A DNA stretch of 64,000 bases. It comes from a bacterium (GTDB lineage: Bacteria > Patescibacteriota > Patescibacteriia > HK-STAS-PATE-3). The stretch covers positions 26,662 to 90,661 of the forward strand of contig JAZDMR010000009.1 in the NCBI GenBank assembly GCA_043800725.1. The letters run 5' to 3'. The number at the start of each line of letters is the position of its first letter. The first letter of the stretch is position 1. The notes under the pieces were generated by a model. That model did no database searches and was not told where the DNA came from. It saw nothing but the letters and a program-made list of their open reading frames with translations. The translations under genes and the position numbers were made by a program. Below are positions 7,836-41,182 of the stretch, in pieces.

Positions 7836-8516
7836 TTATAATAGATATTTGCCGGCTATTTGATCCATGGTGATCTCCCCGTGATCAATAGTAATTACTC
7901 TTTTCCTCAACGTGTTAACGATTTCACGATTATGCGTTACCAGGACAACAGTGGTTCCAAATTCGTTAATTTTTTTCAGTAGCGTAATAATTTCCTGGGC
8001 GTTGATCGAATCCAAGTTTCCGGTCGGTTCGTCAGCTACCAAAATTTTCGGCCGATGAACCAAGGATCTGGCAATAACGGCTCTTTGCTGTTCCCCTCCG
8101 GACACATGCTTGGGATATCTGTTCATTTTTGTTTCTAGGCCAACAATTTTAAAAACCTGCGGAACAATCGCCTGAATTTTCTTTTTGGGCTCTCCGGACA
8201 CCTCCAAAGCAAAGGCCACGTTTTCAAACAGCGTTTTTCTGGGTAATAATTTAAAATCCTGAAAAACCACTCCGATTTGGCGTCGAAGCAAAGGTATTTC
8301 ATTTTGCTTAATCTTGGTAATATCCCAGCCTCCGATGATTACTTTTCCTTTGCTAGGCCGCAGCTCGGCAATAATTAACTTGGCAATAGTTGTTTTGCCG
8401 GAACCTGACTGTCCCACCACGGAAACAAATTCACCAGGAGTAATATTCAGCGTTACATTTTTTATGCCTGCTATGTCGCTCGTGTATAATTTTGTAACGT
8501 TTTCGAATTTTATCAT
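7836..8516 (-). CDS. ftsE: Cell-division ATP-binding protein FtsE
   Basis: 226 aa. Walker A (GQSGSGKTT), ABC signature (LSGGEQQRAV), Walker B (ILVADEPTGNLD). Confidence 0.85.
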   Translation of the reverse strand: MIKFENVTKLYTSDIAGIKNVTLNITPGEFVSVVGQSGSGKTTIAKLIIAELRPSKGKVIIGGWDITKIKQNEIPLLRRQIGVVFQDFKLLPRKTLFENVAFALEVSGEPKKKIQAIVPQVFKIVGLETKMNRYPKHVSGGEQQRAVIARSLVHRPKILVADEPTGNLDSINAQEIITLLKKINEFGTTVVLVTHNREIVNTLRKRVITIDHGEITMDQIAGKYLL

Positions 8517-8660
8517 TATTTTTCCCCAACTATAGATTAACGCAAGTTAGCTATTTAGTCCATATATAGCACCTAAAAATTAGTGTTCGAGCGGAGTCGA
8601 GAATTCTAATTTTAGGCATATTTTAAGACAGGCTTCTCCACAAGGTCGAAGACTAATTGC

Positions 8661-10241
8661 CTATTGCTCCATGGCCCAATCACCCAAATCAATCATGTCC
8701 TGGTTTCGCGAGGAGCCTGTATGAGAGCCTAGAAGCACTACTATTCTTTGCTTATCGCCTGAGACAAACTTTAAGCCAAAAGTAGCCATATCAGTGCCTA
8801 AATACCCTGTTTTTCCGCCATAAATGGGCAATCCCTTGTCTAATATATGATTGGAATTCTTGAGCTCAATAATTCTTTCATGATCCGTACCAGTATTCGC
8901 GCTGATGCGATCATATTTAGTTATGCTCATTATTCTGATACCTTCCCTGGTCATCAAATAGTTAATCAATTTGGCCACATCTTTTGGCGTAGAAACATTG
9001 CCGGCATTAATTCCGGTGGTTTCTACAAACAAAGAATTAGTCATACCCAAGCGCCGAGCCGCGTCATTCATTCTGTCAACAAATTCTTGCTGGGTATAGC
9101 CTGAGGCTCTGACTAAAGTTTTGGTGATATTATTGGCCGAGTTAATCAAAACTGCTTTAAGAGCTTCGTCCACTGCTAGCCTGTCTCCTTGATTCATGGG
9201 GATGAAGCTTTCAATCGTGGTATTTACATTATCCGTTGATTCGTAAACAATCTCACTTTGATCATAGGGTATTAAGCTGGTCCCGCCCGGCGACTCAAGA
9301 AAAATTAACACAGTCATCAGCTTGGTAATGCTGGCAATCGGCACGGTTTGAGGATTTTTTTGATAAATAATCCTACCGTCTGTCGGATCATAAACCAGGG
9401 CTGAGCTGGCGGTTATGGCTGGCGCGTTACTAAGCACGTCGGTGGTTTCTGTTTGCGTTTCTTTCGTCTCATCTTTTGGCTCCACACGCACGGTGATAAT
9501 CCCCTCACCCAAACTTTCCAAGGCTAAAAAAGCATCACTGGATAAATCAATAATCCTTCCTTTAACAAACGGACCGATAGATACAATTTTAACTGTGACT
9601 GATTTTTGGTTTGCGGTGTTAGTCACTTTTACATATTCACTAATATTATAATTATTAGACGAGGCGGTCATGGGTCGATTGGCATCTCGATACCAGCTGG
9701 CATAGCCTTCTTGGTAGCCCACCTCTTCAAAAACCGCGATCTTGGAATAGGGCAAATGCGTAAAAGCTCTGACGCTGGAGATGTCTTTTATATCAACTGA
9801 GTACAGAGCAATCCATTTCTCTTTAATAGAATCCCAGTACCTAATTTGCCGATGATCAACACTGCCCGAATCGTACTTTAAAACCACAATTACTTCCTTG
9901 GCAAATATCTTGATCGGATCTGTCAGAATATCAAACTCATACAAAGGACTGACCATTTTCAAATCTTCCGGAATAGGAATTTCTTCATTAATCTGCTTCA
10001 GGGTAATCAGTGCCGGCCGATCCAGCACATTGGGAAATATGCCCATGATTAAATTTTCTGACGGGGTTTTAATAGTGTATCCCTTTTCTACAGTCGCCTG
10101 ATCCAGGTGCAGCTGAATTAAATCAGAATCAACGGCTTGAGCTGTTTGTGCGTTAAATATGGCTACTAAAACTAATAACATCCCCAGGGCAGGGGCTGTA
10201 ATCTTGGTCATTTTTAACATGTTATTTGCGTGTTTTTTCAA
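8661..10241 (-). CDS. Serine-type D-Ala-D-Ala carboxypeptidase (S11) with an N-terminal RlpA-like DPBB domain
   Basis: 526 aa with a signal peptide. Central GYASWYRDANRPMTASS…VKVTN…RIIDLSSDAF matches the RlpA double-psi beta-barrel hallmark. C-terminal SITK (SxxK), SANN (SxN) and KTG motifs match an S11 DD-carboxypeptidase. Confidence 0.65.
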   Translation of the reverse strand: MKKHANNMLKMTKITAPALGMLLVLVAIFNAQTAQAVDSDLIQLHLDQATVEKGYTIKTPSENLIMGIFPNVLDRPALITLKQINEEIPIPEDLKMVSPLYEFDILTDPIKIFAKEVIVVLKYDSGSVDHRQIRYWDSIKEKWIALYSVDIKDISSVRAFTHLPYSKIAVFEEVGYQEGYASWYRDANRPMTASSNNYNISEYVKVTNTANQKSVTVKIVSIGPFVKGRIIDLSSDAFLALESLGEGIITVRVEPKDETKETQTETTDVLSNAPAITASSALVYDPTDGRIIYQKNPQTVPIASITKLMTVLIFLESPGGTSLIPYDQSEIVYESTDNVNTTIESFIPMNQGDRLAVDEALKAVLINSANNITKTLVRASGYTQQEFVDRMNDAARRLGMTNSLFVETTGINAGNVSTPKDVAKLINYLMTREGIRIMSITKYDRISANTGTDHERIIELKNSNHILDKGLPIYGGKTGYLGTDMATFGLKFVSGDKQRIVVLLGSHTGSSRNQDMIDLGDWAMEQ

Positions 10242-10282
10242 GTATGATGGTTATTTGTCAGTACGGATAAGGTTAGCATATT

Positions 10283-10311
10283 TTGGATATATTTCAATAT
10301 CACTATTATAA
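10283..10311 (+). promoter_or_regulatory. Candidate sigma70-type promoter (TTGGAT-17-TTATAA) in a 445-bp intergenic region
   Basis: Found by eye. There is no plus-strand CDS downstream; a plus-strand terminator lies about 190 nt further on. Confidence 0.3.
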
Positions 10312-10496
10312 ATTAGAAAATGGATACAAAAAGAATGGTCTTCCGCCTCCGCGGGAGAGACAATGTGTTGATAATTACACTTAGGATTGTGCCTTGGCCA
10401 TCTTCCTGGACGTAATTAATCTATTCAGAACTCTTCTGCGAATTTTCGGCAGCAAGGAGTCTTCAACTTCACGACGATAGGCAAATGCCCTTTCAA

Positions 10497-10532
10497 CCCC
10501 CCTGTCTAAATTGATGGGGGGTGTTTTCTTTT
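10497..10532 (+). terminator. Rho-independent terminator hairpin (CCCCCC-13 nt-GGGGGG then TGTTTTCTTTT)
   Basis: Perfect 6-bp GC stem plus a T-run on the plus strand. No plus-strand protein-coding gene is upstream. Confidence 0.45.
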
Positions 10533-10687
10533 ATTCATTAATATTGTCGCGATATCGGTCAATAAAATATTATAATCAACCCGCCCTGTGCTTAAGACGC
10601 TGAGCAACGCGGGGAGTTATTATTAGACATGTAGTCAATTGGAGATTATCGGGTCAAGCCCGATAATTACAGGGCGGTGCGGATTAT

Positions 10688-11035
10688 TTAATTGGCTGAT
10701 AGTCCGGTTTTGTTTTCTATGTTACCTACTCGGTGGGTCAGCTCGACCAGCTCGAACCGATAGGCGGCTTGGTCCAGGCGGAGCTCTACTCCATCCAGGC
10801 GCTGTTCAACACCGTCCAAGCGCTGTTCAACAGTGTTTAATCTTAGATCAATAATATCAAATCGCTTATCAATTGCATCAAATCCTTGTTTTACATAACC
10901 AGCCAAATCTTCAATAGATTGAGCTATTCTGTCTATTTTAACCTCAAGACTATCTACCTTGGTGGCTAAATTATCTAAAGTTAGCTCGTCTTTCACTTTT
11001 TTATACCCTTTTTGCCACCATGATGTCATGGGCAT
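10688..11035 (-). CDS. Small coiled-coil protein (115 aa) with RLDGVEQ heptad-like repeats
   Basis: Repetitive LRLNTVEQRLDGVEQRLDGVELRLDQ segment. A truncated paralog lies at 13660..13860. Confidence 0.5.
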   Translation of the reverse strand: MPMTSWWQKGYKKVKDELTLDNLATKVDSLEVKIDRIAQSIEDLAGYVKQGFDAIDKRFDIIDLRLNTVEQRLDGVEQRLDGVELRLDQAAYRFELVELTHRVGNIENKTGLSAN

Positions 11036-11084
11036 ATGTTAACTTGCCACTTATCCATTGTCAATCAAGCAATTCTAACTTGAA

Positions 11085-12467
11085 TCAAAACGGAATATCA
11101 TCCAGGCTCTTGGCAACGCGATAACTATTGAATATCCCTTTCTTGAGTTTATTATCTTTTATAAATTTCTTTTGTTGCTGCTTTATTTCTTTTTTACTCA
11201 AGGTGTTCAAATCGGCTAAAGATTTTCTCGACGATTTAATAAATTTTTTATCCGCTTTAATTATTTCTTGATTAACTTTCAAGGCTAAATCATTTATACC
11301 TACTAGTTTAATGCCGTCCAGAGTCTTCACCCTAGAAAGCGCTACATAACCCATGCCGTATTCAAATGTTTTCCCTAAATCAATTTCTGCACAATCCAAA
11401 CTCATCCCCTGACTCTTATGAACCGTTATGGCCCAGGCTAACCTAAGGGGCACCTGGCTAATTGAGGAAATCACTCGACCATCATCTTCGATCACCCACC
11501 TTTCCGGTGTGGCAATAATTTTCTTACCCTGTACCGTTTCAACGATTGGATAGCCCTCTTCTTCATCAAAGCCTATTACCTTGCCTAGTGTGCCATTGAT
11601 ATACCCTTTGCTAAAATTATTTTTCACAAACATAACAACCGCACCTATTTTTAGCCTGAGTATTTCCGGAGCCAAACAATAACTATTTTTAAGGTTTTCA
11701 ACTAATTGCTGAACACCTTCTGAGTCCATCTGATAGTTAACCTCATCCTCTGTTAACTTACTAAGTTCAGAATTATTCTCAGCATCAACGTTTCTATTAT
11801 GAGTATATAATTTTGTTGGTTTTATATTGCCTTTTATTGATTCCTTAAACCTGGTATGTAAGATATCTACGGTCTCATCGGTTGTTTTATTCGATCGAAT
11901 ATCAGTTAACAGTTGCGAAAACTGCTCATCCTTTTGTCGGTGCTGTTCCTCTAGGTAACAAATCTTTATAGCCATATTATTCCAGATATCCGATTCAATA
12001 ACAAAACGACCATCTTCGTCTTTATGCTTTTTAACCGGTGGCAACTGGAATAAATCACCACACAAAATTATTTGAATACCTCCAAATGGCCGTAAGTCCT
12101 GCCGGAAAGCCTGACAAATAGTATTTACCAAATCCAAACGCTCCGCATTGAGCATGGAAATTTCATCAATTATCAAAACCTTAGCGTCTTCAATCCGTGA
12201 GGTCAGATATTCCTTTTCCCTCAAACTATTGATTTGCGCTTCATTCAAAATATTATTAATGCCCATACCGCACCAAGAATGAATGGTCCGACCGTTTAAA
12301 TGCGTGGCCGCCAAACCAGATGTGGCGGTAACTGCTATATCAATACCATTCCTCTTTAAATAACTAACATATTTATTTAGCAGATATGTTTTACCGCTTC
12401 CGGCGGGCCCAGTCAAAAAAACATTATGACCTAACTTGAGAATGTCTAGCGCCTCTTCTTGTTTCAT
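11085..12467 (-). CDS. Pif1/RecD-family (AAA_30) 5'-3' DNA helicase
   Basis: 460 aa. Walker A GPAGSGKTY, motif II LIIDEISML, Pif1-like LCGDLFQLPPV and C-terminal AITVHKSQGMSLD. Confidence 0.75.
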   Translation of the reverse strand: MKQEEALDILKLGHNVFLTGPAGSGKTYLLNKYVSYLKRNGIDIAVTATSGLAATHLNGRTIHSWCGMGINNILNEAQINSLREKEYLTSRIEDAKVLIIDEISMLNAERLDLVNTICQAFRQDLRPFGGIQIILCGDLFQLPPVKKHKDEDGRFVIESDIWNNMAIKICYLEEQHRQKDEQFSQLLTDIRSNKTTDETVDILHTRFKESIKGNIKPTKLYTHNRNVDAENNSELSKLTEDEVNYQMDSEGVQQLVENLKNSYCLAPEILRLKIGAVVMFVKNNFSKGYINGTLGKVIGFDEEEGYPIVETVQGKKIIATPERWVIEDDGRVISSISQVPLRLAWAITVHKSQGMSLDCAEIDLGKTFEYGMGYVALSRVKTLDGIKLVGINDLALKVNQEIIKADKKFIKSSRKSLADLNTLSKKEIKQQQKKFIKDNKLKKGIFNSYRVAKSLDDIPF

Positions 12468-12504
12468 GTTCTAATCTAGTATTAAAATTGCCTAATCTCA
12501 ACCC

Positions 12505-12537
12505 AAAACCCCCTAGACTAAATACCAAGGGGGTTTT
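12505..12537. terminator. Bidirectional rho-independent terminator (AAAACCCCCT-13 nt-AGGGGGTTTT)
   Basis: 10-bp stem flanked by an A-run and a T-run, directly downstream of the 12549..13121 gene stop. Confidence 0.6.
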
Positions 12538-12548
12538 ATCTACTTATT

Positions 12549-13121
12549 CTATTTCTTCTTCTTAGCCACCTTCTTGACTGTCTTTTTATTAGCTTTCTTG
12601 GGAATATTCTTTGTTTCCTCGGGCTTTTCTGAATCGGGCTTGGTAATAATTTCTTTGGTTGTAGATTCTTTCTTGGTCGCTCCTGGATCCAGTAAATCTA
12701 TTATCTTATCCAATTTGTTGCTTAGAGATTTCAGTTGTTCTGATATCTGTTTGTTCCCGACGCCTTCTCTGTCTCCGCCACCATGCCTTACTCCACCGCG
12801 CCGATCACCGGATCTGTCCTCTTTATTAAAACATTCACTGCAGTATATGGGTTTTCCGCTAGTTGGTCTAAATGGCACTTCACAGCTCTTGCCGCACTTA
12901 TCACAAGTTGCCGAGTACATTTGCCGATCACCTGATCTACCAAAACCACGATCTCCTGATCTGCCGTGATCGCGTCCGCCTGACCTTCCCTGGAATCTGT
13001 CTCCTTGTTGCTCAAAACATGAGCTGCATAAAACCGGCTTGCTGCCAGTCGGCTTAAACGGCACTTCACAGCTCTTGCCGCACTTGCTACAGGTTGCTTG
13101 AAACATTTTTTTATCGTACAT
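12549..13121 (-). CDS. Tandem zinc-ribbon (2x CxxC-x17-CxxC) protein with RGG/RSGDR-rich linkers and a Lys-rich C-terminal tail; probable nucleic-acid binder
   Basis: 190 aa. Two near-identical units (CSKCGKSCEVPFKPTGSKPVLCSSCF and CDKCGKSCEVPFRPTSGKPIYCSECF) are separated by GRSGDRGFGRSGDR repeats. The C-terminus is KKANKKTVKKVAKKKK. Confidence 0.55.
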   Translation of the reverse strand: MYDKKMFQATCSKCGKSCEVPFKPTGSKPVLCSSCFEQQGDRFQGRSGGRDHGRSGDRGFGRSGDRQMYSATCDKCGKSCEVPFRPTSGKPIYCSECFNKEDRSGDRRGGVRHGGGDREGVGNKQISEQLKSLSNKLDKIIDLLDPGATKKESTTKEIITKPDSEKPEETKNIPKKANKKTVKKVAKKKK

Positions 13122-13140
13122 TATTTATTAAATTAGTTAT

Positions 13141-13515
13141 TTATGCTTCTTCTTCATTTTTAAAAACATACAAATTCCTTGCTTCTTTAAAATTATCTAG
13201 TATATTTTCTATTATTTTATCAATCTTATTTGCCTTATTGCGATCCTCTTTAAGTGTCCCGGAATCTCTTGAATTTAATACACCAATATTTAGAGCAACT
13301 AATTCCTGCCACATTCTAAAAAAGTCTTCTCGGGATAAAAGCGCAAATTCAGATTCAGACTCAGTTACTTCTTCAATTGAATTTAATATATCGTATACCT
13401 CATCCCATTCTTGTTTATCAGCACTTGTTTTTAATTCTTCAAAATTGCTAATTAATGCAGTTTTTTCTGTTTTAGTTTCTGGCGGCTGTAGCCCCTCTGA
13501 TATTTCTCTTAACAT
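13141..13515 (-). CDS. Hypothetical acidic protein (124 aa)
   Basis: Glu/Asp-rich and predicted helical. No motif recognised. Confidence 0.4.
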   Translation of the reverse strand: MLREISEGLQPPETKTEKTALISNFEELKTSADKQEWDEVYDILNSIEEVTESESEFALLSREDFFRMWQELVALNIGVLNSRDSGTLKEDRNKANKIDKIIENILDNFKEARNLYVFKNEEEA

Positions 13516-13659
13516 GTCTTTATCTTTTAATAATTAATATACTATTACTATTATTACACCCCTATCCTACACCAAATCTGTTCCTATTGTAAATGATAAA
13601 GGAAGTCTAGCGCAGACTCATTGGAGATTCTTTGTTCTGTCGTACGTCGGAACTCAGAT

Positions 13660-13860
13660 TTACAGCCCGACCTTATTTTCTATTATATCAACCCTATGAG
13701 TCAGCTCAATCATTTCAAATCGACAAGCGACTTGATTTAAACGTAATCGCATCTCATCTTGGTTTAGCTCTAACCTATCAAGACGTCCCTCAATACCACT
13801 GAATCGACCATCAATATCCTTGAATCGCTCTTCAACACCATAAAAACCCTGTTTGACCAT
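13660..13860 (-). CDS. 5'-truncated paralogous copy of the 10688..11035 coiled-coil gene (66 aa; possibly a remnant)
   Basis: Its C-terminus ACRFEMIELTHRVDIIENKVGL aligns with AYRFELVELTHRVGNIENKTGL of the 115-aa protein. The upstream in-frame sequence encodes …LARSIEDLAF, homologous to IAQSIEDLAG, but is interrupted by stops. The downstream flank is also similar. Confidence 0.4.
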   Translation of the reverse strand: MVKQGFYGVEERFKDIDGRFSGIEGRLDRLELNQDEMRLRLNQVACRFEMIELTHRVDIIENKVGL

Positions 13861-14095
13861 AAATGCTAAATCCTCAATAGACCTAGCTAAGTCTTTTTAT
13901 TGTTACCTCTTTTTCATTATCCTCATTCCTTTTTGCTACCTATGCATCATGTTTATAGATTAGCCTGGTTAAATATTATTATTAATTTTGAACCGACTAT
14001 TTTATTAATTCATTCCAAATCAAGCCGAGGGCATGCTTGACAATTTCAAAATTACTTGATACTTTTTGATGTTTATGAGAGCTTTTTAAGGTACC

Positions 14096-14443
14096 TTGAA
14101 AATTCTAAGTCACTTGACTGCTGGACTTGAAAGAGGAGGAATGTGCATGTCATATAGTCTTAGTAAACGAGTTTGGAACCGTGCTGATGAGTCTGTGGGT
14201 CACGATCTGTCCAAGACTTGTTATATTGGTTTGGTTAGCGGTCTGACTGTTTATGGATTGATTATTGCCACGGTCATTGCCGGCATTGCTATGTACTGTC
14301 CTTCAAACAGTGTTTGGCTTGTTCTGGGTTCGGGTCTGGGTATTTCCTTACTTGGAATCTTGGTTATCCTGGGCAGTGATATCTGGCTGGCTTCCATGAG
14401 TGGATATACCATAATGATTTTTGGTCTGGGTATGATAAGATGA
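14096..14443 (+). CDS. Small polytopic membrane protein (115 aa as listed)
   Basis: 3 predicted TM helices. The likely true start is the internal ATG at 14147, which is preceded by AGAGGAGG. Confidence 0.45.
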   Translation: MKILSHLTAGLERGGMCMSYSLSKRVWNRADESVGHDLSKTCYIGLVSGLTVYGLIIATVIAGIAMYCPSNSVWLVLGSGLGISLLGILVILGSDIWLASMSGYTIMIFGLGMIR

Positions 14444-14814
14444 TCTTGGTGTCAACAGCTGGCGCAACTCTAGTCATAGCCCTCATCGGCATAATAATTC
14501 CGTTCGCGATATATGGCTTGGGCGGATTCTTGATTAATGTGCTTCTTGTTTCGGTCATGGTCCGGCTTAGACAGATAGTTATTGCCTTCACTATTTTCGA
14601 TGGATCGATCTGGTACATGAAGTATATTGAGTATGGCGCGGTTCTACTTCTCACTCTCTACATTGTTAACAATTGGAAACGTGCCATGAACCTTCCACGC
14701 ACAATCGAAAATGCCATGGATTGCGCTCTGGCAAACCTTCTGGATGTTTTCAATCTGATCTATACTTTACTGCGCTTTACAGGTTCCCGGATAACATCCC
14801 TGGTGCGTAGGTAG
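14440..14814 (+). CDS. Small polytopic membrane protein (124 aa)
   Basis: Start overlaps the stop of the previous gene (ATGA). 3-4 TM helices. Followed by a terminator. Confidence 0.45.
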   Translation: MILVSTAGATLVIALIGIIIPFAIYGLGGFLINVLLVSVMVRLRQIVIAFTIFDGSIWYMKYIEYGAVLLLTLYIVNNWKRAMNLPRTIENAMDCALANLLDVFNLIYTLLRFTGSRITSLVRR

Positions 14815-14843
14815 TTCACATGTTCATTAAATCCTCTATATCA

Positions 14844-14884
14844 AACACCCTTTGTTTTAAATGATAAAGGGTGTTTTTATTTAT
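14844..14884 (+). terminator. Rho-independent terminator (AACACCCTTT-13 nt-AAAGGGTGTT then TTTATTTAT)
   Basis: 10-bp stem plus a T-run immediately after the 14440..14814 gene. Confidence 0.55.
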
Positions 14885-41150: not shown

Positions 41151-41182
41151 AAAGCCCTTGGTTCACGCTAAGGGCTTTTTAT
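41151..41182 (+). terminator. Rho-independent terminator (AAGCCCTT-10 nt-AAGGGCTT then TTTT)
   Basis: Directly after the lipoprotein stop. Confidence 0.6.

Follow-up and report, generated by a model that had tools for sequence, protein, structure and literature searches.

Our analysis of a 64,000-nucleotide (nt) stretch of contig JAZDMR010000009.1 (the window), which by its look belongs to a Patescibacteria (candidate phyla radiation, CPR) chromosome, suggests that a small gene cassette was once duplicated locally, in tandem fashion, and that the region around two related coiled-coil genes is what erosion has left of this old event, an explanation that we hold to be reasonably probable. The intact gene, copy A (10688..11035, minus strand), is an open reading frame (ORF) of 115 amino acids (aa) from a Patescibacteria family of single-helix coiled-coil proteins; its paralog, copy B (13660..13950, minus strand), spans 96 codons, the whole length of the gene, contains three in-frame stops, and is a probable pseudogene. 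The two copies bracket genes for a Pif1 helicase, a tandem zinc-ribbon RGG protein, and a small acidic protein, as an earlier, preliminary description of this DNA had stated. A second element, the 3' end of a membrane-protein gene (tm2), also occurs twice, and each duplicated pair (A and B; tm2 and its relic) has one intact and one degenerate member.

The preliminary description had based the kinship of the copies on ORFs at 10688..11035 (115 aa) and 13660..13860 (66 aa) with a shared C-terminus, and both the ORFs, which lie on the minus strand, and the similarity were confirmed. In BLASTP comparisons, 36 of 65 residues were identical (55%; E 3e-22), and tblastn with copy A, which extended the match in copy B to 13890..13663, detected no other copy anywhere in the 64 kb. 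Local alignment of the coding-region DNA gave a score of 52, against 19.6 +/- 2.7 for shuffled sequences, and none of 500 shuffles reached 52; by blastn, identity was 71% over about 100 nt aligned. The copies lie 2.6 kb apart, in direct orientation. The second ORF had been taken for a 5'-truncated copy preceded by stop-interrupted in-frame sequence. Translation recovered the interrupted sequence, and the truncation did not hold up: the whole gene is present to 13950, and the 66-aa stretch, which begins at an internal Met (MVKQGF) directly downstream of LARSIEDLAF, is its residual ORF. Read from the start codon at 13950, copy B runs MMHR*QKGMRIMKKR*Q*KDLARSIEDLAF and then MVKQGF (asterisks denote stops), and it aligns codon for codon and gap-free to an 89-aa homolog at locus L071 (MTPWWQKGIKRMGKEITLNDLAKSIDDLAI...; longer quote, MTPWWQKGIKRMGKEITLNDLAKSIDDLAIMVKGGF) and to the start of copy A (MPMTSWWQKG...). 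Here and below, L-numbers denote loci from other organisms used for comparison.

The stops of copy B lie at codons 5 (TAG, 13936-13938), 16 (TAA, 13903-13905), and 18 (TAA, 13897-13899); Trp occupies the first of these positions in the homologs, whose residues at the three are W, I, and L, and the reading frame is disrupted relative to intact homologs. Over the N-terminal part that contains the stops, copy B is 73% identical to L071 at the nucleotide level, and the nonsense mutations therefore would postdate the duplication. Copy B has the LExxQDE segment typical of the family and retains 9 of the 10 invariant columns of a 37-sequence family alignment, every one of which is present in copy A; Cys replaces the family-invariant Tyr of AYRFE, and the near-invariant positions D88 and L96 are also changed. 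A Logan assembly made independently from this sample (SRR26275510) shows no difference in the sequence of copy B. Recoding of the stops was considered and rejected, as both TAG and TAA occur, at three sites with different residues in the homologs, and other genes of the window terminate in ordinary stops.

The second duplicated element is found on the outer sides of the two copies. Divergent from copy B are two membrane-protein ORFs, tm1 (14096..14443, plus strand) and tm2 (14440..14814, plus strand), which overlap by ATGA and may be two coupled genes or one gene split by a frameshift; the fused tm1 and tm2 product had no match in Pfam, and tm2 alone scored a sub-threshold 25 bits (cutoff, 34.1) against the C-terminal half of the Bax1-I model. 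The intact tm2 has its counterpart in a relic of a paralog's 3' end at 10385..10480 (plus strand), which reads DCALAIFLDVINLFRTLLRIFGSKESSTSRR against DCALANLLDVFNLIYTLLRFTGSRITSLVRR at the tm2 C-terminus, with 19 of 31 residues identical in tblastn (10385..10477; 61%; E 4e-6) and 24 of 57 in a gapped alignment (E 1e-6). The stop of the relic falls at the same aligned position as that of tm2, an in-frame stop precedes the relic, and weaker similarity continues back to about 10307. Both sequences are followed by a terminator-like hairpin, at 10498..10534 (plus strand) after the relic and at 14843..14884 (plus strand) after tm2, identified by a repeat search and a consensus scan. Identity between the hairpins is 73% across 37 nt, with a local alignment score of 27 against 13.7 +/- 2.3 for shuffled sequences that none of 2,000 shuffles reached; relic and hairpin together (10385-10534) correspond to 14720-14884. 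No further copy of tm2 or of the coiled-coil gene was found in the remaining 59 kb. A third similar hairpin is present at 12510, and a hidden Markov model (HMM) built from the three hairpins matched just those three in the 64 kb; we considered it as a relic of a middle unit and did not accept it as evidence of one, since an unrelated hairpin at 41155 scores equally (27) against that at 14848.

Two types of element duplicated in direct orientation support a local segmental duplication. On the left the order is tm2 relic, terminator, and copy A, and on the right it is copy B, tm1, tm2, and terminator, with every element in direct orientation. A junction within a tandem array produces such a permuted order, and a single dispersed copy does not. 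The divergences are similar in order for copies A and B (71% at the nucleotide level), the hairpins (73%), and relic and tm2 (61% at the amino acid level). The ancestral cassette would have comprised a minus-strand coiled-coil gene and, on the plus strand, one or two genes for membrane proteins with their terminator. After its duplication, the membrane gene on the left side would have been reduced to its 3' relic and terminator (10385-10534), with copy A kept intact, and on the right side the tm genes would have stayed intact while copy B gained three nonsense mutations and substitutions at conserved sites; the low-GC acidic gene between the copies is perhaps a later arrival. Both the tandem origin and this order of events are what we infer from the present arrangement. 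Consistent with this, local duplication is usual in the coiled-coil family, of which locus L051 (4340-4900) holds a head-to-tail pair with 84% identity, L044 (6346-8294) holds two intact paralogs (43% identity) on either side of an unrelated gene, whose 423-aa product has a hydrophobic segment near its N-terminus, and L053 holds another pair; in four metagenome-assembled genomes (MAGs), copies are on separate contigs. The region thus resembles duplication with reciprocal degeneration in its direct duplicates, its tandem-junction order, and the intact and decayed members of two pairs. It differs from a simple case in the three unrelated genes between the copies and in the need for at least three units or two events.

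That need is one of several points that weigh against a tandem duplication: copy A sits at the junction and copy B heads a complete unit, and the placement of the Pif1, zinc-ribbon, and acidic genes between A and B is left unexplained by the model. The match between relic and tm2 covers few residues (31 to 57), the likeness of the hairpins is weak evidence when taken alone, given the equal score of the unrelated hairpin at 41155, and the 66-residue core of copy B, which scores 82.7 bits against the family HMM, in the range of intact members, may not be dead. In addition, copies A and B are each closer to another organism's gene than to each other. Copy A matches L071 in 67 of 89 residues overall and 49 of 59 in the C-terminal part (82 to 91% nucleotide identity), and its VEQRLDG heptad block recurs in the L071 homolog as a derived feature common to both; in the C-terminal part, copy B matches L011 in 46 of 66 residues and copy A in 36 of 66. 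As copy A is nearer to L071 than to copy B, the A/B split would be older than the A/L071 split, and either the duplication took place before these lineages parted or one of the copies came from a separate acquisition. These affinities would also fit a history in which A and B are ancient dispersed paralogs that were brought near each other by gene-order shuffling, the tm2 relic being an unrelated leftover. Several MAGs do hold family copies on different contigs, and gene order around Pif1 is not conserved in relatives, which indicates that shuffling is common in the group. We nevertheless regard such a history as unlikely, because two independent element types that both have direct-orientation duplicates of broadly similar divergence inside 4.5 kb are hardly to be expected without a local event, and because neither element has another copy in the remaining 59 kb.

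The preliminary description had favored an old insertion or segmental rearrangement, possibly a degraded mobile or defence-associated module. The old, diverged direct duplicates and a history of segmental duplication in the region stood up to analysis, the latter strengthened by the tm2 relic; an insertion of the block with the Pif1, zinc-ribbon, and acidic genes into or next to the coiled-coil gene, with the two copies as its scar, seems very unlikely. It is true that direct repeats bracket the three genes, as in mobile elements or defence islands with flanking repeats around a helicase gene, that the acidic gene is a compositional outlier lacking relatives, that some Pif1 orthologs adjoin restriction-modification, nuclease, or prophage genes, and that the Pif1 protein gives weak partial matches to candidate defence-system helicase models. 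The repeats here, however, are whole diverged genes rather than att sites or target-site duplications, copy B being a complete gene with point nonsense mutations and not an insertion-made fragment, and each of the two copies has a nearer relative than the other. Their similarity is limited to coding sequence: the downstream flanks, which had been described as similar, have a single 10-mer in common (AATCTCCAAT; p about 0.03 against shuffles), and the 5' flanks showed no significant similarity (p 0.19 against shuffles). No recombinase, integrase, or transposase gene is present between 8 and 17 kb of the window, no terminal inverted repeat surrounds the bracketed genes, and the tRNA genes at 6.6, 16.6, and 17.5 kb do not adjoin the region. 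PADLOC (PADLOC-DB 2.0) reported no specific defence system, giving generic partial helicase matches of at most 65 bits, marginal coiled-coil matches (13 bits) for copy A, and none for the zinc-ribbon, acidic, or copy B proteins; PHROGs and IMG/VR scans and tblastn against GenBank phages returned nothing specific and no viral relatives. The composition of the Pif1 and zinc-ribbon genes is normal, Pif1 is widely conserved in Patescibacteria at constant length, the three genes are together in none of six ortholog contexts, and a terminator-like site divides the block. The tm2 relic, finally, lies outside the bracket and would not be explained by an insertion. Concerning copy B itself, it seems doubtful that its 66 aa are produced as a coiled-coil protein with a shortened N-terminus, which might for instance join copy A in an assembly as its partner or antagonist. 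In favor of expression, the ORF of 66 codons is uninterrupted, its score is in the family range, its ATG is preceded at 10 nt by GAGGA, and a gene caller predicted it in the independent assembly. Against expression, the conserved N-terminal ITLDxLA motif is missing, Cys stands at the invariant Tyr and two near-invariant positions are changed, a consensus scan found no promoter-like site upstream on the strand of copy B, and a predicted hairpin (13887..13865) covers the GAGGA; an intact remainder of 66 codons is also what would be expected for a time after recent N-terminal nonsense mutations. That start-less or stop-bearing copies such as B serve as silent recombination donors for the expressed copy, providing cassette-type variation in a reduced genome, is extremely improbable, and nothing here shows conversion tracts in support of it.

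Unlike copy B, copy A is an intact family member. It carries M..WWQKG at the N-terminus, then ITLDxLA, VKxGFD, and heptad repeats, and LDQAAYRFELVELTHRVxxIENKxGL at the C-terminus; 21-nt tandem repeats at 10779..10848 (minus strand; repeat search, spacing 21) encode the heptads VEQRLDG and VELRLDQ. In an AlphaFold2 (AF2) model, residues 20-110 form a single helix with a predicted local distance difference test score (pLDDT) of 90, and the product most likely is a cytoplasmic protein consisting of one helix of approximately 90 residues. A protein modelled as a single helix would have to oligomerise as a coiled coil, which makes a coiled-coil oligomer its predicted state. A near-consensus promoter-like site (TTGACA-17-TAACAT; 11036..11064, minus strand) abuts the ATG of copy A, the upstream sequence has no Shine-Dalgarno motif, and the homologs begin at the residue that aligns with Met3; the mRNA may be leaderless and start at Met3. 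The 3' flank of copy A contains a stable RNA-type structure (10575..10687, minus strand) in which a long closing stem (CCGCCCUG...CAGGGCGG) surrounds a 9-bp hairpin. Its minimum free energy (MFE) is -42 kcal/mol (z -5.05), and none of 200 shuffles was of equal stability; the 3' flank of copy B has no such structure (z -0.1). An Rfam search of 10200-14200, which includes this structure, gave no match at E values up to 1.

Relatives of copy A are spread through the Patescibacteria. A protein search with copy A returned 19 relatives, and a pattern scan covering one genome per GTDB species yielded 60 family loci. The MAGs that contain them bear the names of Kerfeld-, Falkow-, Doudna-, Azam-, Uhr-, and Portnoybacteria or of further Patescibacteria, and several more have other labels. 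What we call the AYRFE family, an uncurated grouping defined in this analysis by its GF motif, its invariant core, and its single long helix, comprises proteins mostly of about 65 to 135 aa that lack a signal peptide and consist of an N-terminal ITLDxLAxMVKxGFD, a variable number of RFDxVDK-type heptads, and the invariant core L..AYRFE....R....E. Copy A has all of these defining features, and copy B keeps the core with Tyr changed to Cys; both belong, with L003, L011, L050, L071, and L073, to a subfamily with an additional N-terminal M..WW motif. Copy A had no Pfam or NCBIfam family at its cutoff, the XhlA model (PF10779) giving 29.7 bits against a cutoff of 34.7 and, for copy B, 13.5 bits, also below it. 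Like XhlA, DUF16 (PF01519), and DUF7310, the family consists of short, all-helical, heptad-repeat proteins, but its Pfam and NCBIfam scores all fall below the cutoffs. A profile of 37 family sequences matched one solved structure, PDB 7o97 (E 3.4e-5), a hypothetical coiled-coil protein of Candidatus Giovannonibacteria that has the N-terminal motif KKxITLxxLxxMVxxGF, through which the match is made, and lacks the C-terminal AYRFE motif that defines the family; a literature search on 7o97 found nothing relevant. Similarity to the long helix of influenza HA2 (E 6e-4 to 3e-3) was dismissed as coiled-coil noise, as it became no better with the 37-sequence profile while that to 7o97 improved.

All-against-all clustering of the neighbors at 57 loci revealed no conserved partner of the coiled-coil family. 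The best recurring neighbor, a membrane protein of the Wzy_C-TPR type, occurred at 7 of the 57 loci and is common in these genomes, and we rejected it as background. A homolog of the Pif1, zinc-ribbon, or acidic gene was found within 8 kb at none of the 60 coiled-coil loci, and IMG/VR contained no relatives of the family. Having no curated Pfam or NCBIfam entry and being often duplicated, the family could merit definition as such.

The genes between copies A and B appear from their composition and neighborhoods to be unrelated, separately transcribed chromosomal genes that form no functional, mobile, or defence module, and they should not be reported as one. The largest (11085..12467, minus strand) encodes a Pif1-family SF1B DNA helicase of 460 aa, a conserved Patescibacteria protein that matches PF05970 with 130 bits (cutoff, 25.9; 1.3e-37) and the 2B domain model PF21530 with 33.7 bits (cutoff, 23.9), and that aligned to the human and yeast PIF1 structures with an E value of 3e-74. 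Its translation contains GPAGSGKT (Walker A) and DEIS (Walker B), and RPFGGIQIILCGDLFQLPPV resembles the Pif1 signature between helicase motifs II and III. At least 8,000 homologs were found at E values below 1e-50; the 120 best listed are 55 to 70% identical, nearly all are near the query in length, and the named sources are mostly Patescibacteria. This pattern of homologs marks the gene, by all appearances, as a conserved resident. The protein shares its full-length PF05970 and 2B matches with the Pif1 helicases of known structure (human, yeast, and Bacteroides) and has nothing unusual about it apart from a short Lys-rich C-terminal tail and neighbors that differ in each relative examined. 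In six neighborhoods of orthologs at 64 to 70% identity, all different, the gene follows a UvrD-exonuclease fusion, together with a RhuM-like gene (L007, 260-5772), follows a PD-(D/E)XK nuclease gene with an overlapping start (L074, 9249-11386), follows an alpha-amylase gene, lies beside genes for a serine recombinase and a terminase-like protein (L078, 199-7100), has a Bro-N gene on one side and a restriction-modification gene of the MmeI type on the other (L079, 5232-10404), or is on a short fragment having no recognisable neighbor (L008). None of the six contained a homolog of the zinc-ribbon, acidic, coiled-coil, or tm gene or of pepS11, a peptidase gene neighboring copy A. The surroundings of Pif1 in Patescibacteria thus seem to be a variable region. 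A literature search on Pif1 in Patescibacteria found nothing relevant.

Between the Pif1 and zinc-ribbon genes lie a terminator-like hairpin followed by TTTT (12509..12532, minus strand) and a promoter-like site (12501..12473, minus strand), both of them consensus matches only. The zinc-ribbon gene (12549..13121, minus strand) encodes a zinc-finger protein of a common type, 190 aa long, with two CxxC-x17-CxxC domains (CSKCGKSCEVPFKPTGSKPVLCSSC and CDKCGKSCEVPFRPTSGKPIYCSEC), and it contains an internal 95-nt repeat. Like the proteins of the TIGR04272 and PF23477 (zf_Tbcl_2) families, the product has the domain well above the curated cutoffs (PF23477, 115.2 bits against 27, 1e-33, in two stretches; TIGR04272, 114.5 against 36), and it differs from them in that the domain is present twice, with a linker rich in RG/RSG and a long tail rich in Lys. 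The CxxC-x17-CxxC domain has been described as zinc binding in small proteins of Methanosarcina mazei (PMC12704099). The third gene (13141..13515, minus strand) encodes an acidic ORFan protein of 124 aa with a pI of 4.4, which found just itself both among 5.8e9 clustered proteins and in a phmmer search against 1.84e9 representatives; its single-sequence AF2 model had a pLDDT of 48. The GC content of the ORFan is 0.307, and its GC content at third codon positions (GC3), 0.192, lies more than 4 standard deviations (SD) below that of the long ORFs of the window (0.41 +/- 0.05); the GC3 values of the Pif1 (0.37) and zinc-ribbon (0.44) genes are normal. The ORFan may have arrived recently or may evolve fast, and this would concern one gene and not the block. 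Comparably AT-rich 400-nt windows occur near 36.5, 37.9, and 53.9 kb.

The finding is an ordinary one, and its importance lies mostly in annotation, together with the uncurated coiled-coil family and its distant solved relative, 7o97. Copy B is better entered as a probable pseudogene than as a 66-aa protein, and the 446-nt apparent intergenic gap between pepS11 and copy A (10242-10687) is the site of both a gene relic and an element with stable structure. The window as a whole has a GC content of 40.5%, with nearly all genes on the minus strand, and homologs of its genes were traced to Patescibacteria MAGs. Searches of GTDB genomes with pepS11 found no relative, and those of metagenomes and proteins with Pif1 found relatives of at most 70% identity that had no common neighbors, a close relative of the genome not being among them. 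Two contigs of the independent Logan assembly are 100% identical to the window, one over 8250-13648 and the other over 13656-14586. The break between them spans 7 nt (13649-13655) immediately 3' of copy B and could be caused by strain heterogeneity or a drop in coverage.

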